64,000 nucleotides of DNA from an uncultured Mycoplasmatota bacterium (GCA_900553395.1 USDJ01000005.1:10489-74488), one strand, 5' to 3'. Shown: positions 3,423 to 52,366, counted from the stretch's first letter. Notes: a model not told the origin generated them from the sequence alone. Translations and numbers: made by a program.

Positions 3423-4553
3423 TTATTTATTATTCATTATTTCTTTATATTTATTTAAAATGTATTCATTTATATAAGACATTTTATTATTGATATCGCT
3501 TAATAATTTAAATTGGTTTCTAGCTCTATCTAAATTATGAGTTTCATAATTAGTTTTAAAATATGTATCGCCATTTATATAGTCGCTCAAAAATCTAAGT
3601 CCAAGTTCAAATGTAATAATTCTAATGGCTTCCCCCATATTGCACACTTCTTCTTCTAATAAATATGGTGCCATTTCACTTAGATAACCATCAGTATAAG
3701 ATTCGAATAGCTCAAGATCCAAATATACTTTATCTAAATCTTTTTCATCTTCACTAGAACTAGATGCAGTACTTCTTATTCCATCACCATAATCATAAAG
3801 TGAACTACCTAGCATAACTGTGTCTAAATCAATAACCGCTAGATAATCGTTAGTATCTTTATTCATCATAACATTATTGATTTTAGTATCATTATGTGTA
3901 ACTCTAACTGGAATCTTGCCTTTAGACATTAAATCAGTAATAGTAGTTGAACATTCTGAATTTTTAATAACAAAGATAATATCTTTTGCTACATCATCAA
4001 CCCTATTACATACATCCAGACTTATATCACTTAAAAATGATTTATATCTTAAACTTGTATTATGAAAGTCTTTTATAGTTTCTTCAATTGTATTTATTGG
4101 ATAATCTATCAACATTTTTTGAAAATTACCAAATGCCCTACCCGTATTATAGACTATGTTTTTATCTACAGACACATCATATGATATAGAGTTCTCGATA
4201 AATTCATATGCTCTATAATACTGTTTTTCACCAGATTCATCTAAAATTACAGCTAAGTTTTTATTGTCTTTTGTTAACACTACTTTTAAAGTCTGATGAT
4301 CATTATCTCCCCTGAATTTAAGTTTTCTTTCTATCCAGTTTGTTACATTTTCTATATTCTTCATTAATTTATAAGGCTCTTTAAATACAGTGGTATTTAT
4401 TTTCTGGAATATAAATTCTTTTTCTTCACCACTGTCCATTTTATATGTTGCCACAAAAGTCTTATTTATATTTCCACTAGAATTACCTTTTATATTGATA
4501 ATCTTGCCTGCTATATCAAATCTGTTGGCTATATTTTTTATATCATCACTCAT
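3423..4553 (-). CDS. N-acetylhexosamine 1-kinase-like phosphotransferase (NahK/LnpB-like, APH fold)
   Basis: Blocks 'IPVRVTHNDTKINNVMM', 'VIDLDTVMLGSSLYDYGDGIRS', 'EDEKDLDKV' and 'GLRFLSDYINGDTYFKTNYETHNL' align with Bifidobacterium NahK as I remember it. Not verified by search. Confidence 0.7.
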   Translation of the reverse strand: MSDDIKNIANRFDIAGKIINIKGNSSGNINKTFVATYKMDSGEEKEFIFQKINTTVFKEPYKLMKNIENVTNWIERKLKFRGDNDHQTLKVVLTKDNKNLAVILDESGEKQYYRAYEFIENSISYDVSVDKNIVYNTGRAFGNFQKMLIDYPINTIEETIKDFHNTSLRYKSFLSDISLDVCNRVDDVAKDIIFVIKNSECSTTITDLMSKGKIPVRVTHNDTKINNVMMNKDTNDYLAVIDLDTVMLGSSLYDYGDGIRSTASSSSEDEKDLDKVYLDLELFESYTDGYLSEMAPYLLEEEVCNMGEAIRIITFELGLRFLSDYINGDTYFKTNYETHNLDRARNQFKLLSDINNKMSYINEYILNKYKEIMNNK

Positions 4554-12374: not shown

Positions 12375-14153
12375 TCAACTAACTACTATGCTCTTTTTGG
12401 CTTCACTATATTCTTGCATTTTCTTAAGTATTTTATCCCTTTTAGCAATTATTAGCTTTAAATCATTTATCTCTTTACTATCCTTCTTATTTGCTAAATC
12501 ATCCATCACTTTAAAGTATCTGCCAGTAGGAAACTGTTCATAAAATTCTTGGAGTAATTCGCTTAAGGCGTTAAAATTTTCTTCACCCACAACATCAAAT
12601 AGATATTCTACTCGTCCTTCTTTTCTACTTTCTTTTATTTCTTTACTATAAGTCCTATAAAAATCTTTTACTAAAAAGAGCATATTCTCATATGATGTTC
12701 CACCATGTATCTTAGTAGTATTAGGTTCGTTAAATATCGTCTTCTCGTTGCTCAACATTAATTCGTGAATTTCTTGGCAAATTATTTCATTTATAATTTC
12801 ACTTAAAAGTTCACAGCTTCTTTTTTTTCCATCAGATTCTATATCAACTACATCTTCTTTATCTGAAAAGCGCTCACTTATTACATCCCAACCACTAATT
12901 ACTTTAATTTCACTTTCCGAAGCGCTTAAAAGACTTAATTCATAAACATGATTTAATTCGTGTAAAAGTGCACTATCAAGATATTCAAGAAGAGACCCCA
13001 AATTAAGGCATAGAATTGAATGCAACTGATAGTTCCCATCTTTTTTTACTAGATTTGGTGACACAAAAGCTCTAGAATTCAAATATGCCTTAGCATTTAT
13101 ACCATCATTTTTATCTAAAAGGCCTAATCTATCTATTTTTTCTCTCGTCTTAACATAACCATCTAATGAATTAATATAATTATTTAAAAATCTAGTATAA
13201 GCTTCACCTCTTCTTTGTTTTATTCTTTGAACTAATTCTTCATTAGGAATTAATTTTTTACAACTTTCATTATTTAAATAATCTTCATAATTATTTCCTA
13301 AATCTATTCCATACGATTTAAAGAAAGAGATTCTATCTCTTTTTATTGAATCTGCACGCCATCCGCCACTTAATAAAAGTTTACTATTTTCTTCTGAAAA
13401 GGCTTCTATTTTAGATTCATAAGATAAAGACAATCCAACGACACTATTAGCCACATCCATTGAAAATCCTATTTTATGGCCTGTTCTTTTTTCTTCTAGA
13501 AGAGATAATTCTCTTTCGTTTTGTGGAATAAGATCAATAAACTCTAAATATAATTGATCCTTTTCTCTATCTTCTAATTCATCTTTTAGTTTTAAACTTT
13601 TATCAACATATTCCTGATAAGGTTTTAAACCTTCTATTCTCTCTTTATAATGCTTCTTCATCATTTCATACTGTTCCAAAATAGGACCCAAAAAAGAAAA
13701 TGCTCCACTATCTATTAACGCATTCAAATTGCTAGCATTTACATTTTCGTCAAAATTTCTTAAAAATTCTACAACTTCTTCTCTTCTGTAATTTGTAAAT
13801 GCCCCTTTATCTTTTATATAAGTAGCATATTTATCAATTGGAAATAGATTTTGATAATCCAGAGTATATCCCGCAAATAATATTCTTTTCATTTCATTTT
13901 GCTTAGTATCAGCATAGCCAAGATTATCTAGCATATTATCCAAAAGTTCATTAAATATATTTTTTCTAATATCCTGCAAATTTCGTTTTAATTCTTCAGG
14001 AGTAATTACGCCTACAATAGAAATCTGACTAAATTTTTTTTCTACTTCTTCCGGGCTAACGCCGTAATAAACTGCAAAAGCATTTATTATATCCGGTAAA
14101 GATTTTTTGACAGTTTCATCACAATCTAAAATTCTAAACAATTCTTTATTCAT
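12375..14153 (-). CDS. Hypothetical protein with a single HExxH motif (about 592 aa)
   Basis: Long clean ORF containing 'ALLHELNHVYE', a possible zincin site. ATG 14153 overlaps the upstream stop as ATGAATAA. No family recognised. Confidence 0.55.
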   Translation of the reverse strand: MNKELFRILDCDETVKKSLPDIINAFAVYYGVSPEEVEKKFSQISIVGVITPEELKRNLQDIRKNIFNELLDNMLDNLGYADTKQNEMKRILFAGYTLDYQNLFPIDKYATYIKDKGAFTNYRREEVVEFLRNFDENVNASNLNALIDSGAFSFLGPILEQYEMMKKHYKERIEGLKPYQEYVDKSLKLKDELEDREKDQLYLEFIDLIPQNERELSLLEEKRTGHKIGFSMDVANSVVGLSLSYESKIEAFSEENSKLLLSGGWRADSIKRDRISFFKSYGIDLGNNYEDYLNNESCKKLIPNEELVQRIKQRRGEAYTRFLNNYINSLDGYVKTREKIDRLGLLDKNDGINAKAYLNSRAFVSPNLVKKDGNYQLHSILCLNLGSLLEYLDSALLHELNHVYELSLLSASESEIKVISGWDVISERFSDKEDVVDIESDGKKRSCELLSEIINEIICQEIHELMLSNEKTIFNEPNTTKIHGGTSYENMLFLVKDFYRTYSKEIKESRKEGRVEYLFDVVGEENFNALSELLQEFYEQFPTGRYFKVMDDLANKKDSKEINDLKLIIAKRDKILKKMQEYSEAKKSIVVS

Positions 14154-14439
14154 ATAGATCATACATCCAATCTATTAATGCATTATAGTTTTCGCCTTTT
14201 ATATAAATTTTTTCTGATTCATTATTAATATTTACATTTATAATAACCTCATCACCATCTATAATGCTGGAATTACTAGTATAGCCCTTATATTTTCTTA
14301 TTATTCTAAATAATTCATTTATTTTATCCTCGGTTACATATTTTAACGTATCATTTATTAAAACTGTCTTTAAAGTTAGATCTACTAATATTTTATCTAT
14401 CCTGCCAATTTTATTAATTTGTATTTCAATGCTATTCAT
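14146..14439 (-). CDS. Hypothetical protein (97 aa)
   Basis: ORF translationally coupled to the 592-aa gene. No recognisable motif. Confidence 0.45.
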   Translation of the reverse strand: MNSIEIQINKIGRIDKILVDLTLKTVLINDTLKYVTEDKINELFRIIRKYKGYTSNSSIIDGDEVIINVNINNESEKIYIKGENYNALIDWMYDLYE

Positions 14440-25116: not shown

Positions 25117-26769
25117 TTATGGTTCAAATACTATATTTGAATCACTATATCCATCAGCCCAACCAAATGCACCACTTGGTAAGTAATTAAAATCTGATAG
25201 AGATGTCTTTCCTTTTACTATAACACTAGTTAGTTTATTTCCATAAAAAGCATAACCAATATAAGCAACGTTATCTGGTATTGTTATAGTCTTTAAATCC
25301 AATTCAGAAAAAGAGGAATTATCTAAAGTAGTTACATTAGATGGAATTTTTATATCTTCCCTTCTAGCGCCAGCATAAGAATTAATAGTAGAACCACCAC
25401 TCATTTTTCCATCAGAATATATAAAAGCTTCACTATCAGGTAATTGATTATTGGTAAATGCTCCATGTCCTAAATTTTTTATAGTGGATGGAATACTTAA
25501 AGACTCAAGCTTATTATTAGCAAAAGCTTTAATTCCTATAGTTTCTATCTTTGATGGTAAATGAATGCTTCTTAATTCATTATAAGTGAAAGCATTGTCA
25601 GCAATTTCAACAACACTATCTGGAATTGTTAAATCTAATAATTTATTTTTGTAAAAAACACCTGTTTCAATTTTTGTTAAATTTGATGGTAAAACTAGTT
25701 TTTTCAAATTATTTTCCGAAAAAGCATAAATACCTATATTTTCAACACTATTTGGAAGTTTTACACTCGTTAATTTATTTTCTGAAAAAGCATAATCACC
25801 TATATTTTCAACACCATTCGGAAGTTTTACACTCGTTAATTTATTTTCTGAAAAAGCATAACTGCTTATCTCTTTTAAATCATTTGAAAATATAATAGCC
25901 TTTATTTTATTTTTCCTAAAAGCCTTTATTCCTATAGTTTTTAAACTTGATGGAAATATTAATGACTCTATTTGATTTCCAACAAATGCTTCTTCTCCTA
26001 TAGTAACTAAACTAGAAGAAAATTTAATAGATGTAAGCTTATTATCCCCAAATGCACGAGCTCCGATAGTTTTTACACTATCAGGCAAAACTATGCTCTC
26101 TAAATTATTTGCATAAAAAGCTTCATCCTCTATAGTCTCAACGCCATCTGGAATAACTATGCTTTTTATTCCATCAGAATATGGAAAACAATAGCCGGGA
26201 CCAGCACAACGCGTTCTATAGAATAAATTACTACCGATAGCTACGACCTTCTTACCACCAATAGTACTTGGAATTACTACATCATATATCCTATTACTAC
26301 TATTAAAAAAACCACATTGGTATTTAGTTATTTTTACTCCATCTCCTGAGTCACTAACCGTAAAGCAACTTTCTGGTGTTGGCTCTAATTCTACTTCTGT
26401 ATTTGTATTTGAATTAGAATATTTACGTCCATTTATGTAAAACTCATATGTTTTAATTTTGCCTTTTTCAAATGTAATTATTCCATTAGTTGGTGTAGTT
26501 CCATCTATTGTAACGTCAACATCATCGCCATCACAAACTAAAGTGTAATCATCAATCACGCATGCAGAAGGGCTAAATTCTTCAGTTAAATTTTTATGAG
26601 CTACCGTTTGCTCTACTGCGTGCAAATAAAGTTCTGCACTTCTATCATCTGCACTTTCTTTAGAATTACCTATAATATTTATTACAATTGGAGTAGCAAT
26701 CATTGCAATTATTGCGAGTACTACTATTACAGCTAAAAGTTCTATTAATGTAAATCCTTTACTTTTCAT
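25117..26769 (-). CDS. Prepilin-signal protein fused to BspA-type leucine-rich repeats (550 aa)
   Basis: N-terminus 'MKSKG|FTLIELLAVIVVLAIIAMIATPIV' is a class III (type IV pilin) cleavage/methylation signal. The C-terminal two thirds are about 11 repeats of 22-23 aa, 'xIPxSVxxIGxxAFxxNxLxSI'. Confidence 0.8.
   Translation of the reverse strand: MKSKGFTLIELLAVIVVLAIIAMIATPIVINIIGNSKESADDRSAELYLHAVEQTVAHKNLTEEFSPSACVIDDYTLVCDGDDVDVTIDGTTPTNGIITFEKGKIKTYEFYINGRKYSNSNTNTEVELEPTPESCFTVSDSGDGVKITKYQCGFFNSSNRIYDVVIPSTIGGKKVVAIGSNLFYRTRCAGPGYCFPYSDGIKSIVIPDGVETIEDEAFYANNLESIVLPDSVKTIGARAFGDNKLTSIKFSSSLVTIGEEAFVGNQIESLIFPSSLKTIGIKAFRKNKIKAIIFSNDLKEISSYAFSENKLTSVKLPNGVENIGDYAFSENKLTSVKLPNSVENIGIYAFSENNLKKLVLPSNLTKIETGVFYKNKLLDLTIPDSVVEIADNAFTYNELRSIHLPSKIETIGIKAFANNKLESLSIPSTIKNLGHGAFTNNQLPDSEAFIYSDGKMSGGSTINSYAGARREDIKIPSNVTTLDNSSFSELDLKTITIPDNVAYIGYAFYGNKLTSVIVKGKTSLSDFNYLPSGAFGWADGYSDSNIVFEP
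25741..25872 (-). repeat. Near-identical 66-bp tandem duplication inside the LRR array
   Basis: 25741-25806 and 25807-25872 differ at only a few bases. They encode 'SENKLTSVKLPNGVENIGDYAF' and 'SENKLTSVKLPNSVENIGIYAF'. Confidence 0.9.
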
Positions 26770-40993: not shown

Positions 40994-42517
40994 TTATCTA
41001 CTTTTAGCTGGCTTTTCAACTTCAATTTCTTCTTCATCTGATTTTTCTTTTTTTCTTGATAATAAATTTTCCTTTATTCTTTTTAACCAACCTTTTCTTT
41101 TCTCTGAAAATAGTTGCTCTAAATTTTCTTTTACATCAGATACAGAAACATACTCTCCATTATCTACATAATCATATTCACTTAATCGTAAATTTGATGA
41201 TAGTTCAGCGTACATTGATGGAATTCCATTTTTATAAGCATTTTCTTTTCCTATTACTCTTCTAACATCAGTTTCAGTTATTTTTTTATTTTTTAATAAC
41301 TCTATTATACTGCAAAGTTTAAACGTTCTTTTTAACTTTCTAAGAGCTTTTTTGCTTAGTGATAACTTTTCATCTGTTTCTTTTACATAATAAATCTTTC
41401 CCTTATTCTTTTTATAATAATCTTGTAAAGCCTTATTAAAATCTTTTCTATTTACATATTCACCATTTGGAAGAACTATTTCTTCTTCACCGACTTTTAA
41501 ATCGATTACTGCTTGAGGTAGTACTTCACCATCTATAACTGTAGATAAAGTCCTTTTTGTAGCATCTTTTCTAGGTGACAACTTTATAGTTTGAATTTCA
41601 TCTACTCCAGACATTATGTCTTCATACACTTGATTTATTAAAGCATTAGAATTATCAACTATAACATCAGCCAAATCCTCAGATACAGGCACTGGTTTTG
41701 GATCTTTCTTTGGATCAGTTGGTTTTACTGGAGCTGTTGGATCCTTTGGATCTTTCTTTTCTGGATCCTTCGCTGGAGATGGTGCAGGTGCTGGAGTTGG
41801 CTCCGGAGTTGGTGCAGGTACTGGAGTTGGTGCTGAAGTTTTTTCTCTTTCAGCCTTTCTCTTCTCATAATAGTCTTTCTCCCATGGTGTTAATGTTTGA
41901 AGGGTTTCTGGCCCACCAACTTCTAACAACACTCTTGGTGATGTTTTTACTATTTTTTCATATTCCTCTAGCTTTTGCATATCTAGTTTTAATCTAGATA
42001 ACCTATCTGCACAAGCTTGGCTTCTTTCAGATAATGCCTTATATTTATTTCTAGAATGCTCAGTTATATTATGGTTTTCATCGTACTCATACTTAAAAGC
42101 TCTAAGTGAATGTAATGCTACTTGAAATCTTATATCTGCTTCCTCTATATCAAATTCTAGGCGTTTTTTTTCTTGATAAATAATTTTTCTATACTTGTCT
42201 TGAGTCTCACCTAATTCGTATAAATATACATTTGTATAATCTGGCGTATTATTAATCTCATCTTGTAAAGCTTTTTCTTTTGCTAAATATGCATTTTCTA
42301 AATCTCTCTTAACAATTTCTCTATAATTTGGATTAGGTAATGAAGATGTATTCTCAGATACATACTCTCTTAAGTATTCCTCTATCTCAGATTCTTTATT
42401 AGCTTTTAATCTTTCCAATTGTAATCTTAAGTGAGTGACCTTACCATTTCTCTCTTTTTTTAACTCATCTATTTTATCCATAAATGGTTTCATTAATTCA
42501 TCTATTCTATTTTTCAT
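40994..42517 (-). CDS. Unknown modular protein A (507 aa): coiled-coil N-domain, Pro-rich linker, soluble basic C-terminal module
   Basis: Clean ORF. Residues 1-227 are paralogous to the N-terminus of the 47701-49359 product. The linker is 'APTPVPAPTPEPTPAPAPSPAKDPEKKDPKDPTAPVKPTDPKKDPKP'. No family recognised. Confidence 0.7.
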   Translation of the reverse strand: MKNRIDELMKPFMDKIDELKKERNGKVTHLRLQLERLKANKESEIEEYLREYVSENTSSLPNPNYREIVKRDLENAYLAKEKALQDEINNTPDYTNVYLYELGETQDKYRKIIYQEKKRLEFDIEEADIRFQVALHSLRAFKYEYDENHNITEHSRNKYKALSERSQACADRLSRLKLDMQKLEEYEKIVKTSPRVLLEVGGPETLQTLTPWEKDYYEKRKAEREKTSAPTPVPAPTPEPTPAPAPSPAKDPEKKDPKDPTAPVKPTDPKKDPKPVPVSEDLADVIVDNSNALINQVYEDIMSGVDEIQTIKLSPRKDATKRTLSTVIDGEVLPQAVIDLKVGEEEIVLPNGEYVNRKDFNKALQDYYKKNKGKIYYVKETDEKLSLSKKALRKLKRTFKLCSIIELLKNKKITETDVRRVIGKENAYKNGIPSMYAELSSNLRLSEYDYVDNGEYVSVSDVKENLEQLFSEKRKGWLKRIKENLLSRKKEKSDEEEIEVEKPAKSR

Positions 42518-42565
42518 ATATTCCCCTCCATAAAATTAGTGTCTATAGTAGCACATTTTTTTATT

Positions 42566-42811
42566 TTAGTCAATTTCATCATCATCTGAAGAATTAAGAG
42601 CAAATTGACTCAAAACATAATCTAGTTCGTTATTGTCTTTAACTTCTTCTAGTATTATTTTATCTTCTTTTACTTTTTCCACTGCTATCATTATTTCAAG
42701 TGGTTTTGAATTCGTTATTAAATAAACATAATTAACATTATGAAAATTTAATTTATCTACTATAATGTACTCCTTACTATCATCCAACTTAACTATTTGT
42801 CCTATATTCAT
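42566..42811 (-). CDS. Small acidic protein (81 aa), DUF1292-like pattern
   Basis: 'IVKLDDSKEYIIVDKL…NYVYLIT…IILEEVKDNNELDYVLSQF' with a C-terminal 'SSDDDEID'. The resemblance to DUF1292/UPF0473 is judged by eye only. Confidence 0.45.
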   Translation of the reverse strand: MNIGQIVKLDDSKEYIIVDKLNFHNVNYVYLITNSKPLEIMIAVEKVKEDKIILEEVKDNNELDYVLSQFALNSSDDDEID

Positions 42812-42829
42812 ATTATTAATCCCTTTCTA

Positions 42830-43198
42830 TCAATCAACATATTCACAATCTAGTGAATAATCTTTTAAAACTATAAATTTTAATTTATCGTACTCTATAG
42901 ATTTATTAGTATTTGGATTTGTTTCTTTTTTTAAAGCTCCATAACTAATTAAATCGCTTACATTTATTTCTATTACAGTCCCTATAATAGATAGTTCTTT
43001 ATATTCATCCATATTAGAATATATATACGATTTTCCAGCTAAGCAAGCATTACTTACCAATGTTGTATATTTTTTCTCTTCATCATCTTTAGCAGACTTA
43101 AGAAGTGATGGAAAACTAACTAGAAAAATTGCTGCTAAAACTATAACTATAGCTAAAAGTTCTGTTAGTGTAAAACCTTTATTATTAATATTTTTCAT
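42830..43198 (-). CDS. Type IV pilin-like pseudopilin (prepilin N-terminal cleavage/methylation domain)
   Basis: 'MKNINNKG|FTLTELLAIVIVLAAIFLVSFPSLL'; about 122 aa from ATG 43198. Confidence 0.8.
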   Translation of the reverse strand: MKNINNKGFTLTELLAIVIVLAAIFLVSFPSLLKSAKDDEEKKYTTLVSNACLAGKSYIYSNMDEYKELSIIGTVIEINVSDLISYGALKKETNPNTNKSIEYDKLKFIVLKDYSLDCEYVD

Positions 43199-43218
43199 AG
43201 CATCACCAGTATAATTAA

Positions 43219-43247
43219 ATTTTAGCACAAAATTTAAAAATAAACAA
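43219..43247 (-). promoter_or_regulatory. Candidate sigma-A promoter for the pseudopilin operon
   Basis: Minus strand reads TTGTTT, a 17-nt spacer ending in TGC, then TAAAAT (extended -10 type). Read by eye. Confidence 0.35.
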
Positions 43248-46247: not shown

Positions 46248-46508
46248 ATGAAAGGTTTAATCAAAAATTATATAGATTTATTATCGATAGATAAGCTAAA
46301 GAGTTTTGCTTTAAAAAACGATATAAACTTAAATGAAGAACAACTAGAATATATATTAAATTTAACTAAAAACAGTTGGGAAGATATACTTATTAACGAT
46401 GATAAATACTTCAAACTATTACAAGACAAAATTGATCAGTCTAATTTAGATAAAATTAGAGAATTATTTTTATATTACAAAAACAGATATAAAGGATATT
46501 TAATTTAA
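46248..46508 (+). CDS. Small hypothetical protein (86 aa), possibly DUF2624/YqfT-like
   Basis: Lies next to nfo, as yqfT lies next to yqfS in B. subtilis. Helical, 'LSIDKLKSFALKNDINLNEEQLEYIL'. The assignment is weak. Confidence 0.4.
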   Translation: MKGLIKNYIDLLSIDKLKSFALKNDINLNEEQLEYILNLTKNSWEDILINDDKYFKLLQDKIDQSNLDKIRELFLYYKNRYKGYLI

Positions 46509-47372
46509 GACATCTGAAATTAGATTAGAATTAAACTTCTTGGATTTTATCATAGCAATTTCTTGTTTGTAAGGAGCACATCCTTCTATAAAAGGTGTTT
46601 CTAATATTTTAGGAATATCTTTTATTTTTTCATGATAAATAATATTAATTAATGTATCAAATCCTATAGTCCCATATCCTATATTTTCATGCCTATCTTT
46701 CCTAGCACCGATCTCATTTTTAGAATCATTTATATGTATAACTTTTAGAAAATTTAAACCGATTTTCTCATCGAACTCACTTAATAATTGATCAAAATTT
46801 CTTACATCATATCCAGCATCATTTAAATGGCAAGTATCAAAACATACTCCAATATTTTCTTTATGTTTTATTCCATCTATAATTGATTTTAATTCATCAA
46901 AATTGCGACCGATTTCTGTACCTTTTCCTGCCATTGTTTCTAAACATATAACAACTCTTGTATCATCACCTATTGCCATATTTAAAGAATCTACAATATT
47001 TTTTATCCCCTTTAAAACTCCTAGTCCCACATGGCTTCCGGGATGCAATACTACACTTTTTATTCCTAATTTAGAAGCCCTATCTATTTCTTCTTTTAAA
47101 AATCTAACATTAAAGTCAAAGTTTTTATCATTAGCCAAATTTATTATATAGGGAGCATGTATTACTACATTATTTATATCAATACTATTTTCATTCATAA
47201 TTTCAATAGCTTCTTTTGTCAACGTATCATTTATTGGCACTCTAACTGTGTTTTGTGGTGCTCCTGTATAAAACATAAAACAATTTGAACCATACCCTAG
47301 AGCACTTTCAACACTTCCTTTAAGCTGTGTTTCCTTATTAAATTGCACGTGTGAACCTATTATTAAACTCAT
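46500..47372 (-). CDS. nfo: Endonuclease IV (AP endonuclease family 2)
   Basis: 'IHAPYIINLA', 'VLHPGSH', 'LETMAGKG', 'CFDTCH', 'IHINDS'. ATG 47372 follows AGGTG. Confidence 0.93.
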   Translation of the reverse strand: MSLIIGSHVQFNKETQLKGSVESALGYGSNCFMFYTGAPQNTVRVPINDTLTKEAIEIMNENSIDINNVVIHAPYIINLANDKNFDFNVRFLKEEIDRASKLGIKSVVLHPGSHVGLGVLKGIKNIVDSLNMAIGDDTRVVICLETMAGKGTEIGRNFDELKSIIDGIKHKENIGVCFDTCHLNDAGYDVRNFDQLLSEFDEKIGLNFLKVIHINDSKNEIGARKDRHENIGYGTIGFDTLINIIYHEKIKDIPKILETPFIEGCAPYKQEIAMIKSKKFNSNLISDVLN

Positions 47373-47394
47373 TTTAATCACCTATATTAGTATA

Positions 47395-47425
47395 ACAAAA
47401 AAACATATTATTTAAAATATGTTTT
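47395..47425 (-). terminator. Terminator closing the four-gene unknown cassette
   Basis: Minus strand reads AAACATAT-TTTAAATA-ATATGTTT followed by TTTTGTT. Confidence 0.65.
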
Positions 47426-47431
47426 TAAATT

Positions 47432-47686
47432 TTATTCTCCATATTCATCATTATATTGAATCTTATAATCTTCTATTAACTCATTTAAAATGACTGGATT
47501 ATTTATTTTCTGGCAATAAGTTTTACCATCTTTTACAATTTCTTTTAATACAGCATAATCATTAGTTGGTTCTCCATTTGAATCTAATAGTACTGATAGA
47601 AAATAATTTTCTTCTGTAAGTTCACTGTTCAATAACAATAAATAATTTTTATTATTAGCTAGCGTAACAACTTCATCAACCCTCAT
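47432..47686 (-). CDS. Small acidic protein (84 aa), DUF1292-like pattern
   Basis: 'VVTLANNKNYLLLLNSELTEENYFLSVLLD…YAVLKEIVKDGKTY…NNPVILNELIEDY', acidic C-terminus; starts 14 nt after the 552-aa gene. Confidence 0.45.
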   Translation of the reverse strand: MRVDEVVTLANNKNYLLLLNSELTEENYFLSVLLDSNGEPTNDYAVLKEIVKDGKTYCQKINNPVILNELIEDYKIQYNDEYGE

Positions 47687-47700
47687 AATAATATTCCTTT

Positions 47701-49359
47701 CTACATAGCATGTGAATGTCTTAACTCTTCTTCAGGTTCCTCTACTGGACTATTTTTAGTTTCTGGTTTAACTTTTGCTTTTGACTTGTCCATTTTTTTG
47801 GCAAAAGAGTTTAATTTTCTAAATAAAATCTTTTTCTCATCGTCGTTTAATTTTTCACTAGACTGTATTTGTTCAAACAAAATCTCAAAAGATTGATCAT
47901 TTTCAGGATCATTAAAATTAAAATCTTTTTTAAACATTTTTATTTTATTATTAATTCTTTTATATTCATCTGATCTTTTTGGTATTAATAATCCTGTTCC
48001 TAACGCACCAAGACCTCCAAGCCCGGTACCTAAAGTTAATTTTGTTAATAATGCTGCTGTGGCTTGGGCTGAACCTGCTTTTATTGCAGCTGCTTTAGCT
48101 GCTGTTGGAAGAACTTTTCCCCCAATTGTCCAAATTCCAGTATGTGCATTAAAACTAGCTGCTGCTCCAGTCATTGAAGATATTGTATTAGCTAGTGCTG
48201 TGTTAGCACCATGAAGAGCTACCTTTTCACCAGCCGCCGCGGCGTGCCACATACTACCATTAGATAGCATCTGAGAAAATAATCCTGCTGTTTGAGTAGC
48301 CTTTGCTGATGCTACTAGCGCTGGCAATAATTGTGTAATTAATACGACAGTTGCTACTGCTAATGCAGTTATACCTATAGCTATTAAAATTTGTTTCTTA
48401 TGATTTTTAATCCATTGCCATGGAGTAGTTTTTACAACTGCGACCGGCTCCTCATCTGGTTTTATCGGAACTGGAGTTGGTTCAGTTGGATCTTTCTTTT
48501 CTGGATCCTTCGCTGGATCTGATGGATCCACTGGATCTTTCTTTTCTGGATCGTCCACTGGAGTTGATGGGTCTGTTGGATCTTTCTTTTCTGGATTATC
48601 CACTGGAGCTGTTGGATCTGCTGGGTCTTTCTTTTCTGGATTATCCACTGGAGCTGTTGGAGTTGGCGCTGGAGATGGAGTTTGAATTTTATCTCTTTCA
48701 GCCTTTCTCCTCTCATAATAATTCCTTTCCCATGGCGTTAATGTTTGAAGTGTTTCTGGTCCACCAACTTCTAACAACACTCTTGGTGATGTTTTTACTA
48801 TTTTTTCATATTCCTCTAATTTTTGCATATCTAGTCTTAACTCAGCTAACTTATCTTTAATTGCGTTACTTTTGTCAAATAATGCTTTATACTCTTTACC
48901 ATTAGTTACATTGTGATTTGCATCATACTCATACTTAAAGCCCCTCATCTGATGCATAACATTTTCGAACTCTAGTTCAACTTCTTCTATTCTAAATTTT
49001 AAATGTTCCTTGGCCTGATAAATAATTTTTCTATATTCGTCCTGAGCTTCACCTAATTCATATAAATATACATTTGTATAATCTGGTGTTTTATTAATCT
49101 CATCTTCTAAAGCTTTTTCCCTTGCTAAATATTCATTTTCCAAATCTCTCTTTTGAATATCTCTATAATTTGGATTTGGCCATTGAGCAGGATTTTCAGG
49201 AACAACTTCTTTCAAATATTCTTCTATTTCAGATTCCTTATTATTTCTTAATTTTTCTAATTGTAACTTTAGGCCTCTAGTTTGATTGTTTCTTTCTTTT
49301 TTTAACTCGGCTAATTTATCCATAAATGGTTTCATTAATTCATCTACTACACTATTCAT
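47701..49359 (-). CDS. Unknown modular protein B (552 aa): coiled-coil N-domain, PEKKDP repeats, TM plus Ala/Gly-rich membrane module, charged tail
   Basis: N-domain paralogous to the 40994-42517 product. Followed by 'PVDNPEKKDP' repeats, the TM segment 'ILIAIGITALAVATVVLITQLLPALVASA', and the Gly-zipper-like 'LTLGTGLGGLGALGTGLLIP'. AGGAG RBS 8 nt before ATG 49359. Confidence 0.7.
   Translation of the reverse strand: MNSVVDELMKPFMDKLAELKKERNNQTRGLKLQLEKLRNNKESEIEEYLKEVVPENPAQWPNPNYRDIQKRDLENEYLAREKALEDEINKTPDYTNVYLYELGEAQDEYRKIIYQAKEHLKFRIEEVELEFENVMHQMRGFKYEYDANHNVTNGKEYKALFDKSNAIKDKLAELRLDMQKLEEYEKIVKTSPRVLLEVGGPETLQTLTPWERNYYERRKAERDKIQTPSPAPTPTAPVDNPEKKDPADPTAPVDNPEKKDPTDPSTPVDDPEKKDPVDPSDPAKDPEKKDPTEPTPVPIKPDEEPVAVVKTTPWQWIKNHKKQILIAIGITALAVATVVLITQLLPALVASAKATQTAGLFSQMLSNGSMWHAAAAGEKVALHGANTALANTISSMTGAAASFNAHTGIWTIGGKVLPTAAKAAAIKAGSAQATAALLTKLTLGTGLGGLGALGTGLLIPKRSDEYKRINNKIKMFKKDFNFNDPENDQSFEILFEQIQSSEKLNDDEKKILFRKLNSFAKKMDKSKAKVKPETKNSPVEEPEEELRHSHAM
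48481..48654 (-). repeat. In-frame tandem repeats (about 42 nt / 14 aa) encoding the DPEKKDP-x-DP-x-x-PV linker
   Basis: 'ggatctttcttttctgga' recurs four times. Protein reads 'PVDNPEKKDPADPTA PVDNPEKKDPTDPST PVDDPEKKDPVDPSD PAKDPEKKDPTEP'. Confidence 0.85.
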
Positions 49360-49416
49360 TTCAACCACTCCTCACTAATCTACATAATATCATAAAAACA
49401 TAAATTTGGCAAATTA

Positions 49417-49716
49417 TTACTTATTTTCTACCATATTTATAGTACTAACAATAAATTGAGCACTAATATCTTCTAGTGCATTTATATATGAATAAACTGC
49501 TTCTAAAAACTCAGGTTCACTCAAATCTGCTCTTTTTATATTTAACATTTCTTTGTTTAACATTATATTAGGCATTATTCCCATTTTATAGCAAAGAAGA
49601 GAATAATTAGAAATTAATTCTTCTAACTCTTTTATTATTTCACTTCTCTTATTTTCTATTGGAAGTAATTTATAATACTCCATAAGTCCTACAAACGCTT
49701 CTTTTTGTACTTCCAT
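49417..49716 (-). CDS. Hypothetical small protein (99 aa), sequence pattern suggests helical
   Basis: Its ATG overlaps the upstream stop (TAATG). No motif recognised. Confidence 0.5.
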   Translation of the reverse strand: MEVQKEAFVGLMEYYKLLPIENKRSEIIKELEELISNYSLLCYKMGIMPNIMLNKEMLNIKRADLSEPEFLEAVYSYINALEDISAQFIVSTINMVENK

Positions 49717-50081
49717 TATCTCATCACCTTTACTGGTGCTTTAAAGCTATCATTACTATATCCATATGTATTTATGAATCGCTCCATAGCTTTTGTAGCC
49801 GAATGGATATTACTTACCATTTGATATTTTCTTTTAAAGGCTTCAAAATTTTTTATTGCAATAGCTGTTTGACCAGATTTTTTAGATTTTAACTTTTCTT
49901 GTCTTGCTATTTCATTTTTTCCAACAATTTTTTCTATCTGCTTTTCTATATAGAGTATTTCAGCTCTAATGCCGTTAATTTCATCCATTGATCTATCACT
50001 AGAATTTAATAGCTGATTTAATTTTAATTGTAAATCTAATTTTTGATTCTCTAATGAATTTACATCTGACCAACTTATCAT
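49716..50081 (-). CDS. Hypothetical small protein (121 aa), coiled-coil-like
   Basis: AGGAGG RBS ('taggaggctttattATG'). Heptad-like 'LENQKLDLQLKLNQLL…IRAEILYIEKQIEKIV'. No family recognised. Confidence 0.5.
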   Translation of the reverse strand: MISWSDVNSLENQKLDLQLKLNQLLNSSDRSMDEINGIRAEILYIEKQIEKIVGKNEIARQEKLKSKKSGQTAIAIKNFEAFKRKYQMVSNIHSATKAMERFINTYGYSNDSFKAPVKVMR

Positions 50082-50107
50082 AATAAAGCCTCCTACTTAG
50101 TATAATA

Positions 50108-50136
50108 AATATACTATAAATACTACTATTTTTCAA
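50108..50136 (-). promoter_or_regulatory. Candidate sigma-A promoter of the four-gene cassette
   Basis: Minus strand reads TTGAAA, a 17-nt spacer, then TATATT; located 11 nt after the pcrA stop and about 25 nt before the RBS. Confidence 0.4.
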
Positions 50137-50146
50137 GATTTTTAGA

Positions 50147-52258
50147 TTAATTTTGTTTTTTTATACTTTTATGCCCCTTCATAATCTTCCTTATTCCAAA
50201 AGGATGCGGGAATGCTATAGTTAGAATTGATTTATCTATTGTAACTATTACTCCTTCGCCAAATTCATCATGCACTACTTTTTCTCCTACCATATATTCC
50301 AAATTAAGATCTACATTTTTATACTTATCAGGTTTATTATAAGTAATTTTATTGAAACCAGTCTTTTTAGACAATTCTAATTCTTTGTTTATGTATTCAT
50401 CACTAATTTCATTGATAAACCTACTAGGAGGATTTGAATCATATTGTCCAAATAGTAATCTTCTTTTAGCATTTAATATTGTTAATTTCTTCTTAGCCCT
50501 TGTAATTGCTACGTAGCAAAGTCTTCTTTCTTCCTCAATATCGCTTTCGCTACATAAACTCATATTATGTGGAAATATACCCTCTTCTAGTCCTATTAAA
50601 TATACATAATCAAACTCGAGTCCTTTTGCACTATGAACTGTCATAAGTGTAACCACATTTGTATCATTTTTATGTTCTTCTAAATCAGAAACTAAACTTA
50701 TTTCGTCTAAAAATTCAGCTAGTGAAATTATGCCATATCTATCTTCAAAATTTTTAGTTATTGACTTAAATTCTTCTAAGTTTTCAAGTCTTGATTGTGA
50801 TTCTATAGAATCTTCATCTTCTAGTTCTTTCTTTATACCAGTTTTTTCTAAAATTAGATCTACAAGTTCAGTTAAAGAAAGTTCTTCACTCTTATTTTGT
50901 AAATCAAGTATTAGATTTTTAAATTCTAATTCTTTACCACTATCTATAATATTAAATATACTATCGTTCATAATATTTGCTTTTGTAGTCAAATTCTCTA
51001 AGGTCTTTAAACCTATGCCCCTTTTTGGTATATTTATTATTCTATTTAAACTGATATCATCACTAGGATTATAAATTAATTTTAAATAACAAATTAAATC
51101 TTTAATTTCCTTTCTGTTATAAAAGTAAAAGCTTCCTACTACTTTATAGGGAATATTTTCTCTGAGGAAATACTCCTCTATATTTCTAGATTGTGCATTA
51201 GTTCTATATAAAATAGCTATTTTATCTAAACTAACATTATTATTTATCAAAGTTTTAATGTCTTTTAAGACAAAGCTAGCCTCATCTTTTTCATCTTCAC
51301 ATCTCTTATATTCTATCTTATCACCAGCATCATTATCAGTCCAAAGATTCTTTTCTTTTCTTTTTTTGTTATTTTTAATTACATCATTTGCTGCATTTAA
51401 AATATTTTTTGTAGATCTATAATTTTGCTCTAATAAAATGACTTTTGCATTATTATAATCGTGTTCAAAATTTAATATATTTCTATAATTAGATCCCCTA
51501 AATCCATATATACTCTGATCAGGATCACCAACTACACATATATTTTTATATTTACTGCTTAGCATTTTAGTTAATATATATTGAACTTCATTTGTATCTT
51601 GATATTCATCTATCAAGATATATTTGTACTTTTCTTGGTAGTAAGCTAATATTTCTGGATATTTTCTAAATAAAAGGATTGGCAGCATAAGTAAATCATC
51701 AAAATCAACACTATTATTTACTCTAAGCTTTTCTTCATACCTTCTATATACTTTTAAAACAACTTCATCCATTTCGTTTCCTACAAATTTTTCTAACTTA
51801 TCTGGATCTATAAGCTCGTTTTTAGCACTACTTATTCTATTTCTTATGGTTTTAGGATTAAAAAATTTAGGATCAAAATTTAAATCTTTTAAGATTTTTT
51901 TTATTGTGGATAAAGTATCATCTGAATCAACGATTGTAAAATTACTTTTTAAATCTAGTTTGTCATAATTTTTTTTAATAATAGAAAGTCCAAATGAATG
52001 AAATGTGGAAATTTGAATTTTCTTAGTATCTACACCAAGCATTTTTTCCACTCTTTCTTTCATTTCATTAGCAGCTTTATTTGTAAAAGTAATTGCTAAA
52101 ATATTATAAGGATCTATGTTCTTTTCTTCTATTAAATAAGCTATTTTTGTAGTCAATACTTTAGTTTTTCCACTACCCGCACCAGCAAGTATTAACATAG
52201 GTCCATCTATATTTTTAACAGCTTCTATTTGCTTATCATTTAAACTATCTAAATTCAT
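50147..52258 (-). CDS. pcrA: ATP-dependent DNA helicase PcrA (UvrD family)
   Basis: 'LAGAGSGKTKVL', 'DEYQDTN', 'QNYRST', 'TVHSAKGLEF', 'RRLCYVAITRAK'. Start taken as 'MNLDSLNDKQIEAV'. Confidence 0.95.
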   Translation of the reverse strand: MNLDSLNDKQIEAVKNIDGPMLILAGAGSGKTKVLTTKIAYLIEEKNIDPYNILAITFTNKAANEMKERVEKMLGVDTKKIQISTFHSFGLSIIKKNYDKLDLKSNFTIVDSDDTLSTIKKILKDLNFDPKFFNPKTIRNRISSAKNELIDPDKLEKFVGNEMDEVVLKVYRRYEEKLRVNNSVDFDDLLMLPILLFRKYPEILAYYQEKYKYILIDEYQDTNEVQYILTKMLSSKYKNICVVGDPDQSIYGFRGSNYRNILNFEHDYNNAKVILLEQNYRSTKNILNAANDVIKNNKKRKEKNLWTDNDAGDKIEYKRCEDEKDEASFVLKDIKTLINNNVSLDKIAILYRTNAQSRNIEEYFLRENIPYKVVGSFYFYNRKEIKDLICYLKLIYNPSDDISLNRIINIPKRGIGLKTLENLTTKANIMNDSIFNIIDSGKELEFKNLILDLQNKSEELSLTELVDLILEKTGIKKELEDEDSIESQSRLENLEEFKSITKNFEDRYGIISLAEFLDEISLVSDLEEHKNDTNVVTLMTVHSAKGLEFDYVYLIGLEEGIFPHNMSLCSESDIEEERRLCYVAITRAKKKLTILNAKRRLLFGQYDSNPPSRFINEISDEYINKELELSKKTGFNKITYNKPDKYKNVDLNLEYMVGEKVVHDEFGEGVIVTIDKSILTIAFPHPFGIRKIMKGHKSIKKQN

Positions 52259-52366
52259 TTTTTTACCTACTTTCTTTAACATTATACTAAACATTCGTTT
52301 ATATAACAACAAAATTCACAAAAAAAAGAGCAAGTGCTCTTGTATAAATTTTAAAAATCAATTTTA

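Follow-up and report, generated by a model that had tools for sequence, protein, structure and literature searches.

Comparison with relatives indicated that the four genes between pcrA and nfo, on the minus strand of a 64,000-nucleotide (nt) stretch of DNA from an uncultured Mycoplasmatota bacterium (GCA_900553395.1, USDJ01000005.1:10489-74488; hereafter the window, in which positions are counted), are very probably two independent conserved two-gene modules, g1-g2 and g3-g4, made neighbours in the window lineage. The division into two pairs follows from the occurrence of each pair without the other in relatives. A first-pass annotation of the same DNA had treated the interval as a self-contained four-gene unit; this system, read from one genome, dissolved on comparison with relatives, which carry g1-g2 and g3-g4 separately.

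Distribution and expression signals of the two gene pairs

Loci from relatives (L numbers) were taken from GTDB genomes and public assemblies, and g1-g2 loci from a metagenome scan. Scanning with g2 recovered pcrA-g1-g2 in five more distant loci (L017-L021), all without g3-g4, in which identities to the window were 60-76% for pcrA, 38-52% for g1, and 59-67% for g2. The next gene was nfo in L017, L019, and L021 and another small gene in L018. Hence, the comparison of the pcrA-nfo interval that the first-pass annotation had called for returned pcrA-g1-g2-nfo, free of g3-g4, in three relatives. The g3-g4 pair was found without g1-g2 in nine lineages (L001-L006, L008, L013, and L015). Its contexts varied, including murF/lon/ZIP and tuf/dacA and, four times, a position immediately downstream of rplJ-rplL (L013, L015, L016, and L004); the rplJ-rplL site is probably highly expressed and may be the ancestral g3-g4 location. 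On the most parsimonious account, g3-g4 came to lie between g2 and nfo in the window lineage by insertion or relocation. A second promoter-like site in the g2-g3 gap (TTGCCA-17-(TG)TATTAT, with an extended -10; 49384-49412; features are on the minus strand unless stated otherwise) was also counted in favour of the independence of the pairs.

Directly 3' of pcrA (50147-52312), g1 (49716-50081) encodes a basic protein of 121 amino acids (aa; isoelectric point, pI, 9.7) and is the first gene of the pcrA-linked pair, while g2 (49417-49716) encodes an acidic protein of 99 aa (pI 4.6) whose start overlaps the g1 stop. The overlap of 1 nt (TAATG) was read directly from the sequence, in agreement with the original description of these open reading frames (ORFs). 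Both are real genes, because they are intact in population variants (n = 17 for g1, including an in-frame two-codon indel, and n = 6 for g2), are conserved in six lineages, and show a ratio of nonsynonymous to synonymous substitution rates (dN/dS) of ~0.26 for g1 against L010, a value with few substitutions underlying it. Thus the possibility, raised by the first-pass annotation, that the small ORFs lack conservation in relatives did not materialise: in at least six lineages the pair always lies directly after pcrA, whatever gene comes next. In the family alignment g2 had a mean column identity of 75% and an invariant N terminus, MEVQKEAF. Both proteins look helical from their sequences and from weak coiled-coil profile matches, the only ones obtained for g1 (e.g., FliJ at 6e-4). 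The two genes are translationally coupled and, with net charges of +6.6 for g1 and -6.5 for g2, their products are predicted to form a cytoplasmic heterodimer. The invariable placement of the pair 3' of pcrA, in many cases with nfo as the next gene, suggests a possible role alongside PcrA or in DNA repair. In L020 (4912-6258), pcrA-g1-g2 is followed by spoVG-, yabP-, yabQ-, and divIC-like ORFs, judged from translations only, which hints that the clade forms spores.

The remainder of the layout was largely as first described. The start codon of g3 (47701-49359) is an ATG 8 nt past AGGAG, giving a protein of 552 aa with the annotated ribosome-binding site and the same length in public gene calls; a mechanical ORF from an upstream GTG would be 555 aa, and the coordinates of the N-domain below (aa 4-230) follow the 555-aa numbering. 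After a gap of 14 nt comes g4 (47432-47686), which encodes the reported acidic protein of 84 aa (pI 4.3) and has nfo (46500-47381) as its 3' neighbour. The annotated hairpin plus T-tract was recovered after g4 as an A/U-rich terminator candidate with an 11-bp stem and a U-tract (47395-47426; predicted folding free energy -8.7 kcal/mol, z -2.5), and no comparable terminator-type hairpin was found in the g2-g3 gap (z -0.33). It is therefore possible that g1 transcription reads through into g3-g4. The proposed sigma-A promoter fared less well. TTGAAA-17-TATATT is present 5' of g1 (50108-50136), ~10 nt past the pcrA stop and with 10/12 matches, but it is a pattern only, and in this AT-rich DNA the frequency of such hexamer pairs is that of the background (28 observed vs. 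22±4 in shuffled sequence).

Architecture and relatives of g3 and g4

An AlphaFold2 (AF2) model of g3, built from an 81-row alignment, had a mean predicted local distance difference test score (pLDDT) of 76.6 and, together with family alignments, divided the protein into six parts. The N-domain (48679-49359; aa 4-230) is modelled as a bundle of long helices (7-55, 68-93, 97-151, and 157-192; pLDDT 85-96) and would be cytoplasmic. It is followed by an acidic, Pro-rich linker (48448-48678; pI 4.2) of 45-nt tandem repeats with a 15-aa unit, PVDxPEKKDP..., which is predicted to be disordered (residues 235-310, pLDDT <50). Alignments then place a basic juxtamembrane motif, VVKTTPWQWIKNHKKQ, before a first transmembrane segment (TM1; aa 327-355, with a conserved G332 and TQLLPA) that is modelled as one long helix (48304-48447; N-flank charge +3.5, mean hydropathy 2.1). 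The 88-aa putative extracytoplasmic loop (48040-48303; aa 356-443) is predicted to fold as helix, helix, beta-hairpin, and helix (pLDDT 84-95), and is followed by a glycine-zipper TM2, LTLGTGLGGLGALGTGLLI (47983-48039), which has the pattern GxGGLGxxGxG and for which the AF2 confidence is low. The protein ends in a tail of three basic helices, predicted to be cytoplasmic, with an acidic end (47701-47982) and a loosely conserved C-terminal pattern, in which the last residue is M, L, or R and the one before it is basic or small. Net charges of +3.5 for the N-flank, +0.4 for the loop, and +3.7 for the C-flank suggest, by the positive-inside rule and together with the J-domain fusions described below, an N-in/C-in hairpin with the loop outside.

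Searching g3 against 5.8 billion proteins returned only 18 clusters. The N-domain and Pro-rich linker were common only to P0001-P0007 and to a paralog within the window, p507, while P0008-P0018 had the C-terminal membrane module in common and carried unrelated N-termini. A word-indexed search with a C-module profile gave a single protein, probably as a result of low-complexity swamping, and exhaustive HMMER was used instead. Against 1.84 billion representatives it returned 165 matches, 96 of them at E<=1e-10, and in all 96 the full module was located at the C-terminus; the weaker matches covered only profile positions ~49-115, equivalent to g3 residues ~361-418. These searches show a lineage-restricted family of ~96 clusters from uncultured gut Bacilli that is defined by its C-terminal membrane module and across which N-domains are exchanged freely. 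The g3 protein is therefore modular, as first proposed, with separate distributions of N-domain and C-module across clusters. The accompanying description of a conserved helical N-domain with a variable C-module applied only to the in-genome paralog p507; family-wide, conservation lies in the C-module and variation in the N-domain. When 81 family members were scanned with Pfam, an N-terminal DnaJ J-domain was identified in three (E 7e-17), two of which have an HPD motif, at residue 33 and residue 48, respectively. The window g3 has neither a DnaJ match nor an HPD motif. Since DnaK, with which J-domains act, is cytosolic, a cytoplasmic location is likely for the N-terminal region of the g3 family. 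Two divergent g3 paralogs surround a single g4 (g3a-g4-g3b) in L002 (528-4527) and L004 (3010-6879).

Nucleotide comparison within the window pointed to a recent origin for the present form of g3. Its 5' untranslated region with the ribosome-binding site, its N-domain, and its linker (48478-49371) are 80-86% identical at the nucleotide level to the corresponding part of p507 (41693-42529), at a constant offset of ~6842-6848 nt, as in a segmental duplication. At the protein level, p507 and g3 are 61% identical over aa 1-310. Because identity within the genome is this high, whereas window p507 and its ortholog in L019 have only 25% protein identity, window g3 is a recent chimera, in which a p507 head was placed on an ancestral g3-family membrane module. 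Such a chimera is ordinary domain shuffling, not a polymorphic-toxin architecture, and the N-domain swap from p507 is a clean case of shuffling onto a fixed membrane anchor. The donor of the N-domain and linker, p507 (40994-42517), has a different, soluble C-domain, and its orthologs follow efp in L009, L011, L012, and L019. The metagenomic protein P0003 combines a g3-type N-domain with a p507-type C-domain and is either a natural recombinant of the paralogs or a chimeric assembly.

In 10 of 10 distinct loci, a g4 homolog was located directly downstream of the g3-type gene, with a gap of -1 to +21 nt. Identity of g4 across lineages was 48-65% (mean column identity 67%), and dN/dS values of 0-0.06 point to strong purifying selection; of all components, g4 is conserved best. 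Its AF2 model (pLDDT 90.4, predicted template modelling score 0.78) has a five-stranded antiparallel sheet and a C-terminal helix. The fold is thus confidently predicted, and Foldseek searches with it returned no match below E 0.05 in PDB or BFVD. With a charge of -9.5, against +4 for the juxtamembrane segment of g3 and +6 for its tail, g4 would be the obligate cytosolic partner of the g3 membrane module. In L008, a 312-nt inverted repeat (2223-2534 and 3619-3930; 97% complementary) copies the last 50 nt of g3 and the whole of g4, so that an additional g4 follows the gene for an unrelated 269-aa protein with a single TM. DUF1292 (PF06949; YrzB-like) was considered as a relative of g4 and of p81, an 81-aa acidic protein encoded next to p507. 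Like DUF1292, both are acidic proteins of ~80 aa with a similar N-terminal beta-strand pattern, and a weak precomputed match to it exists for a 75-aa acidic protein of L008 alignable with p81. None of 20 g4 homologs matched DUF1292 at E<=5 in Pfam, and the assignment was rejected. Kinship of g4 and p81 through DUF1292 was likewise rejected, with an hhalign probability of 22% and no DUF1292 match for either window protein.

In agreement with the first-pass annotation, which could place none of the products in a named family, g1-g4 gave no meaningful match to Pfam, NCBIfam, PHROGs, or PADLOC. PADLOC-DB models likewise matched none of g1-g4, p81, p507, or the upstream 186-aa protein. Sequence-profile searches of PDB with the g3 C-module, g4, g1, g2, and the loop motif described below were without a match, as were the g1 and g2 family alignments against PDB and Pfam profiles. 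The Foldseek comparison that had been recommended gave no significant structural neighbour for g3 or g4; for g3 nothing in PDB fell below E=1, the top matches being generic BAR and coiled-coil bundles (E>1). Nor were g1, g2, the g3 C-module, or g4 detected on IMG/VR viral contigs, and for this reason a phage-borne origin of g3-g4 was rejected.

Within the g3 loop lies a single copy of a motif of ~55 aa, QM..NS..WH...E...LH..N..L...I...TG....FN..TG.WT (48115-48288), that has no match in Pfam or PDB and recurs in two groups of other proteins. The first consists of Gln/Ala-rich proteins of 450-530 aa and short fragments, with the motif at residue ~4; the second consists of coiled-coil giants of 1000-2970 aa with one to three tandem copies near the C-terminus. 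PHROGs identified four of the giants, P0136, P0140, P0161, and P0171 (1051-1634 aa), as tail tape-measure proteins (TMPs), with E values down to 1e-74, and a C-terminal TMP fragment matched annotated TMPs, among them the TMP of Faecalibacterium phage FP_Taranis. The form NS.AWH...EK..LH..N..L....TG....FN..TG.WT was seen in P0137-P0147 and P0123-P0174, as tandem repeats near the C-termini of Firmicute phage TMPs and at the extreme N-terminus of the Gln/Ala-rich proteins of 450-530 aa. No cultured phage genome was matched when the g3 loop and P0147 were used as tblastn queries. The C-terminal repeat of Firmicute phage TMPs has a helix-helix-beta hairpin motif in common with g3 (profile E ~1e-11 to 1e-4), the form found in both being NS.AW...E..L...N..L....TG......G.W. 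Unlike these TMPs, g3 is a protein of 552 aa without a PHROG match, carries one motif copy flanked by TMs, and is encoded in a chromosomal housekeeping context, absent from viral contigs. The identification of g3 itself as a TMP was rejected, since only the loop motif is common to both. The motif may represent a small envelope-facing domain used by host and phage, and offers a concrete starting point, open to testing, for the question of how the tape measures of siphophages interact with Gram-positive envelopes.

Proposed roles and rival explanations

The best explanation of the whole combines the two modules with a membrane-tethered g3-g4 adaptor and a pcrA-linked g1-g2 pair, and we give it an even chance of being right. 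Its functional part taken alone is more doubtful and is offered tentatively. According to this proposal, g3-g4 would be an adaptor, tethering an exchangeable cytoplasmic domain to the membrane and connecting it with the envelope, with the g3 loop facing the cell envelope and acidic g4, as an obligate cytosolic subunit, binding the conserved basic cytoplasmic segments of g3; g1-g2 would be a pcrA-associated heterodimer. A new membrane-scaffold or envelope system, which the first-pass annotation had held to be equally possible alongside a secreted effector, is thus a viable reading for g3-g4. MapZ/LocZ, DjlA, ARC6/ZipN, and ZipA offer precedents, with a cytoplasmic domain, a flexible Pro-rich or acidic linker, an anchor, and a small outside domain arranged as in g3, and DjlA and ARC6 have a J-domain, as do some g3-family members. 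The likeness is one of architecture only: no sequence or fold similarity to these proteins was detected, and, unlike them, g3 is anchored by a two-TM glycine-zipper hairpin plus tail and has an obligate 84-aa partner.

Several points weigh against this explanation. The distribution of g1-g2 is known only from a pattern-based scan of JGI metagenomes with g2 as the query, and all four genes may be co-transcribed in the window genome, the g2-g3 gap having no terminator. The g3-g4 and g1-g2 contacts are deduced only from the adjacency and translational coupling of the genes and from the complementary charges of their products; TM2 is a low-confidence part of the AF2 model, which leaves the hairpin topology a prediction. 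For a plain housekeeping scaffold, cytoplasmic N-domains as hypervariable as these would be unusual, as would the tandem paralogs of L002 and L004. More generally, the functional roles of g1-g4 are inferred and none has been demonstrated, and the findings do not yet amount to a new mechanism. They do define three orphan families, namely g1/g2, the membrane module of g3, and g4, with conservation and purifying selection in gut Bacilli that are abundant but uncultured.

A bolder form of the adaptor proposal, which we consider unlikely, is that g3-g4 constitutes an undescribed envelope-coupled membrane platform, confined to one clade of uncultured gut Bacilli, whose two-TM glycine-zipper anchor displays an outside domain that also occurs in phage TMPs and whose novel-fold cytosolic g4 adapts interchangeable heads, such as coiled coils and J-domains, to the anchor. 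The presence of one domain in both the anchor and TMPs would then point to a shared envelope or membrane ligand. If true, membrane organisation or cell division would have a further, new modular system, and what the C-terminal TMP repeats recognise during genome injection would become easier to approach.

Rather less likely is a DjlA-like, membrane-anchored co-chaperone or proteostasis platform, in which the non-J N-domains would be client or adaptor domains. The bona fide N-terminal J-domains of 3/81 members are what would be expected of such a platform, but window g3 and 78 of the 81 scanned members (~96%) have no J-domain (PF00226), and J-domains may simply be one kind of cargo among many. 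We regard superinfection exclusion as improbable. The loop would here mimic the TMP domain and block TMP insertion or DNA injection, in the manner of Ltp or Sie proteins, while g4 and the N-domain signal or execute the response. The loop motif in common with phage TMP C-terminal regions, the tandem paralogs in L002 and L004, and the fast turnover of N-domains all fit this explanation. An arms race, however, predicts a variable phage-facing loop and a conserved cytoplasmic domain, the opposite of what was observed, and g4 is highly conserved. Moreover, the genes lie in ribosomal and housekeeping operons rather than in defence islands, match no PADLOC model, and are missing from viral contigs.

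Very improbable, in our view, is a pore, channel, or holin-like function, with oligomers formed through the glycine-zipper TM2 and a polar TM1 and with g4 gating or neutralising the pore from the cytosol. GxGGLGxxGxG and the conserved TQLLPA/G332 in TM1 suggest that the helices pack tightly or form oligomers, and the g3-g4 gene pair is tightly coupled. Such a function would leave the large variable cytoplasmic domains and the J-domain fusions unexplained; no similarity to known channels or holins was found, and the genes have a housekeeping context and vertical-looking inheritance.

The weakest of the rivals, a cassette of the LXG/type VIIb secretion system (T7SSb) kind, is already largely refuted and has only the slightest chance of being correct. 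It would make g1 and g2 Lap-like helpers of the g3 N-domain, the zipper module a TelE-like toxin, and g4 an immunity protein or chaperone, corresponding to the polymorphic-effector layout that the first-pass annotation had seen in the locus. The impression has a basis in gene order, since the TelE locus encodes two small LXG-binding proteins, an effector, and further partners (10.64898/2026.03.12.711312). As in TelE of Streptococcus gallolyticus (with the Gallo_0559/0560 helpers and with TipE) and in TelA-LapA3-LapA4, two helical-looking proteins of ~100 aa stand beside a modular protein of ~550 aa with a helical N-domain and a glycine zipper and a small downstream gene. The g3 N-domain is, in addition, a predicted long-helix bundle, and the same N-domain occurs on two different C-domains in the window genome. 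The layout nevertheless fails every defining feature that could be assessed, EssC having been looked for within the 64-kb window. The absence of LXG and WXG motifs that had already been noted was confirmed by Pfam and NCBIfam scans of g1-g3; no LXG (PF04740), WXG100, Lap1 (DUF3130), or Lap2 (DUF3958) was found in these proteins, their homologs, or the 81 family members, in which no toxin domain was found either, and Foldseek against PDB gave no LXG or Esx match. Tryptophan is absent from g2 and limited to W4 in g1. Unlike in LXG loci, the small helper-like pair tracks pcrA rather than g3-type genes, and the would-be toxin module is the conserved part, joined to unrelated N-domains, which reverses the LXG pattern. 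The downstream protein is conserved and soluble, and its identity and dN/dS, maintained across lineages with unalignable g3 N-domains, are unlike those of an immunity protein. J-domain fusions at the N-terminus imply a cytoplasmic life, and the pair is embedded in housekeeping operons beside rplJL, tuf, or pcrA. As for the secretion ATPase reported as not visible, that statement held for the 64-kb window, which has no EssC-sized ORF, its only ORF >1000 aa being PolC and its other large ORFs being annotated; EsxA, EssA/B, and EsaA were likewise absent from the window.

Other features of the window

Past efp lies a second conserved orphan cluster (40994-43228), comprising a pilin-like gene, p81, and p507, the order of which is kept in L009, L011, L012, and L019. 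The pilin-like gene (42830-43228), downstream of efp, encodes a 132-aa protein with an N-terminal methylation motif. It is followed by p81 (42566-42811), located 5' of p507 and conserved in L009, L011, and L019, whose product has a weak likeness to g4 (E 0.01). A prepilin methylation motif (Pfam N_methyl, 7.9e-7) was also detected in a 550-aa BspA-type leucine-rich-repeat protein (25117-26769). The pairing of N_methyl with leucine-rich repeats is unusual and suggests pilin-like processing of a surface protein.

A 595-aa orphan ORF (12375-14162) has no Pfam match at E<=1e-5. On the plus strand, an 86-aa ORF (46248-46508) runs convergently towards nfo, with 9 nt of overlap at the nfo 3' end. Its conservation in the equivalent place in L009, L011, L012, L019, and L021 makes a genuine small gene probable.

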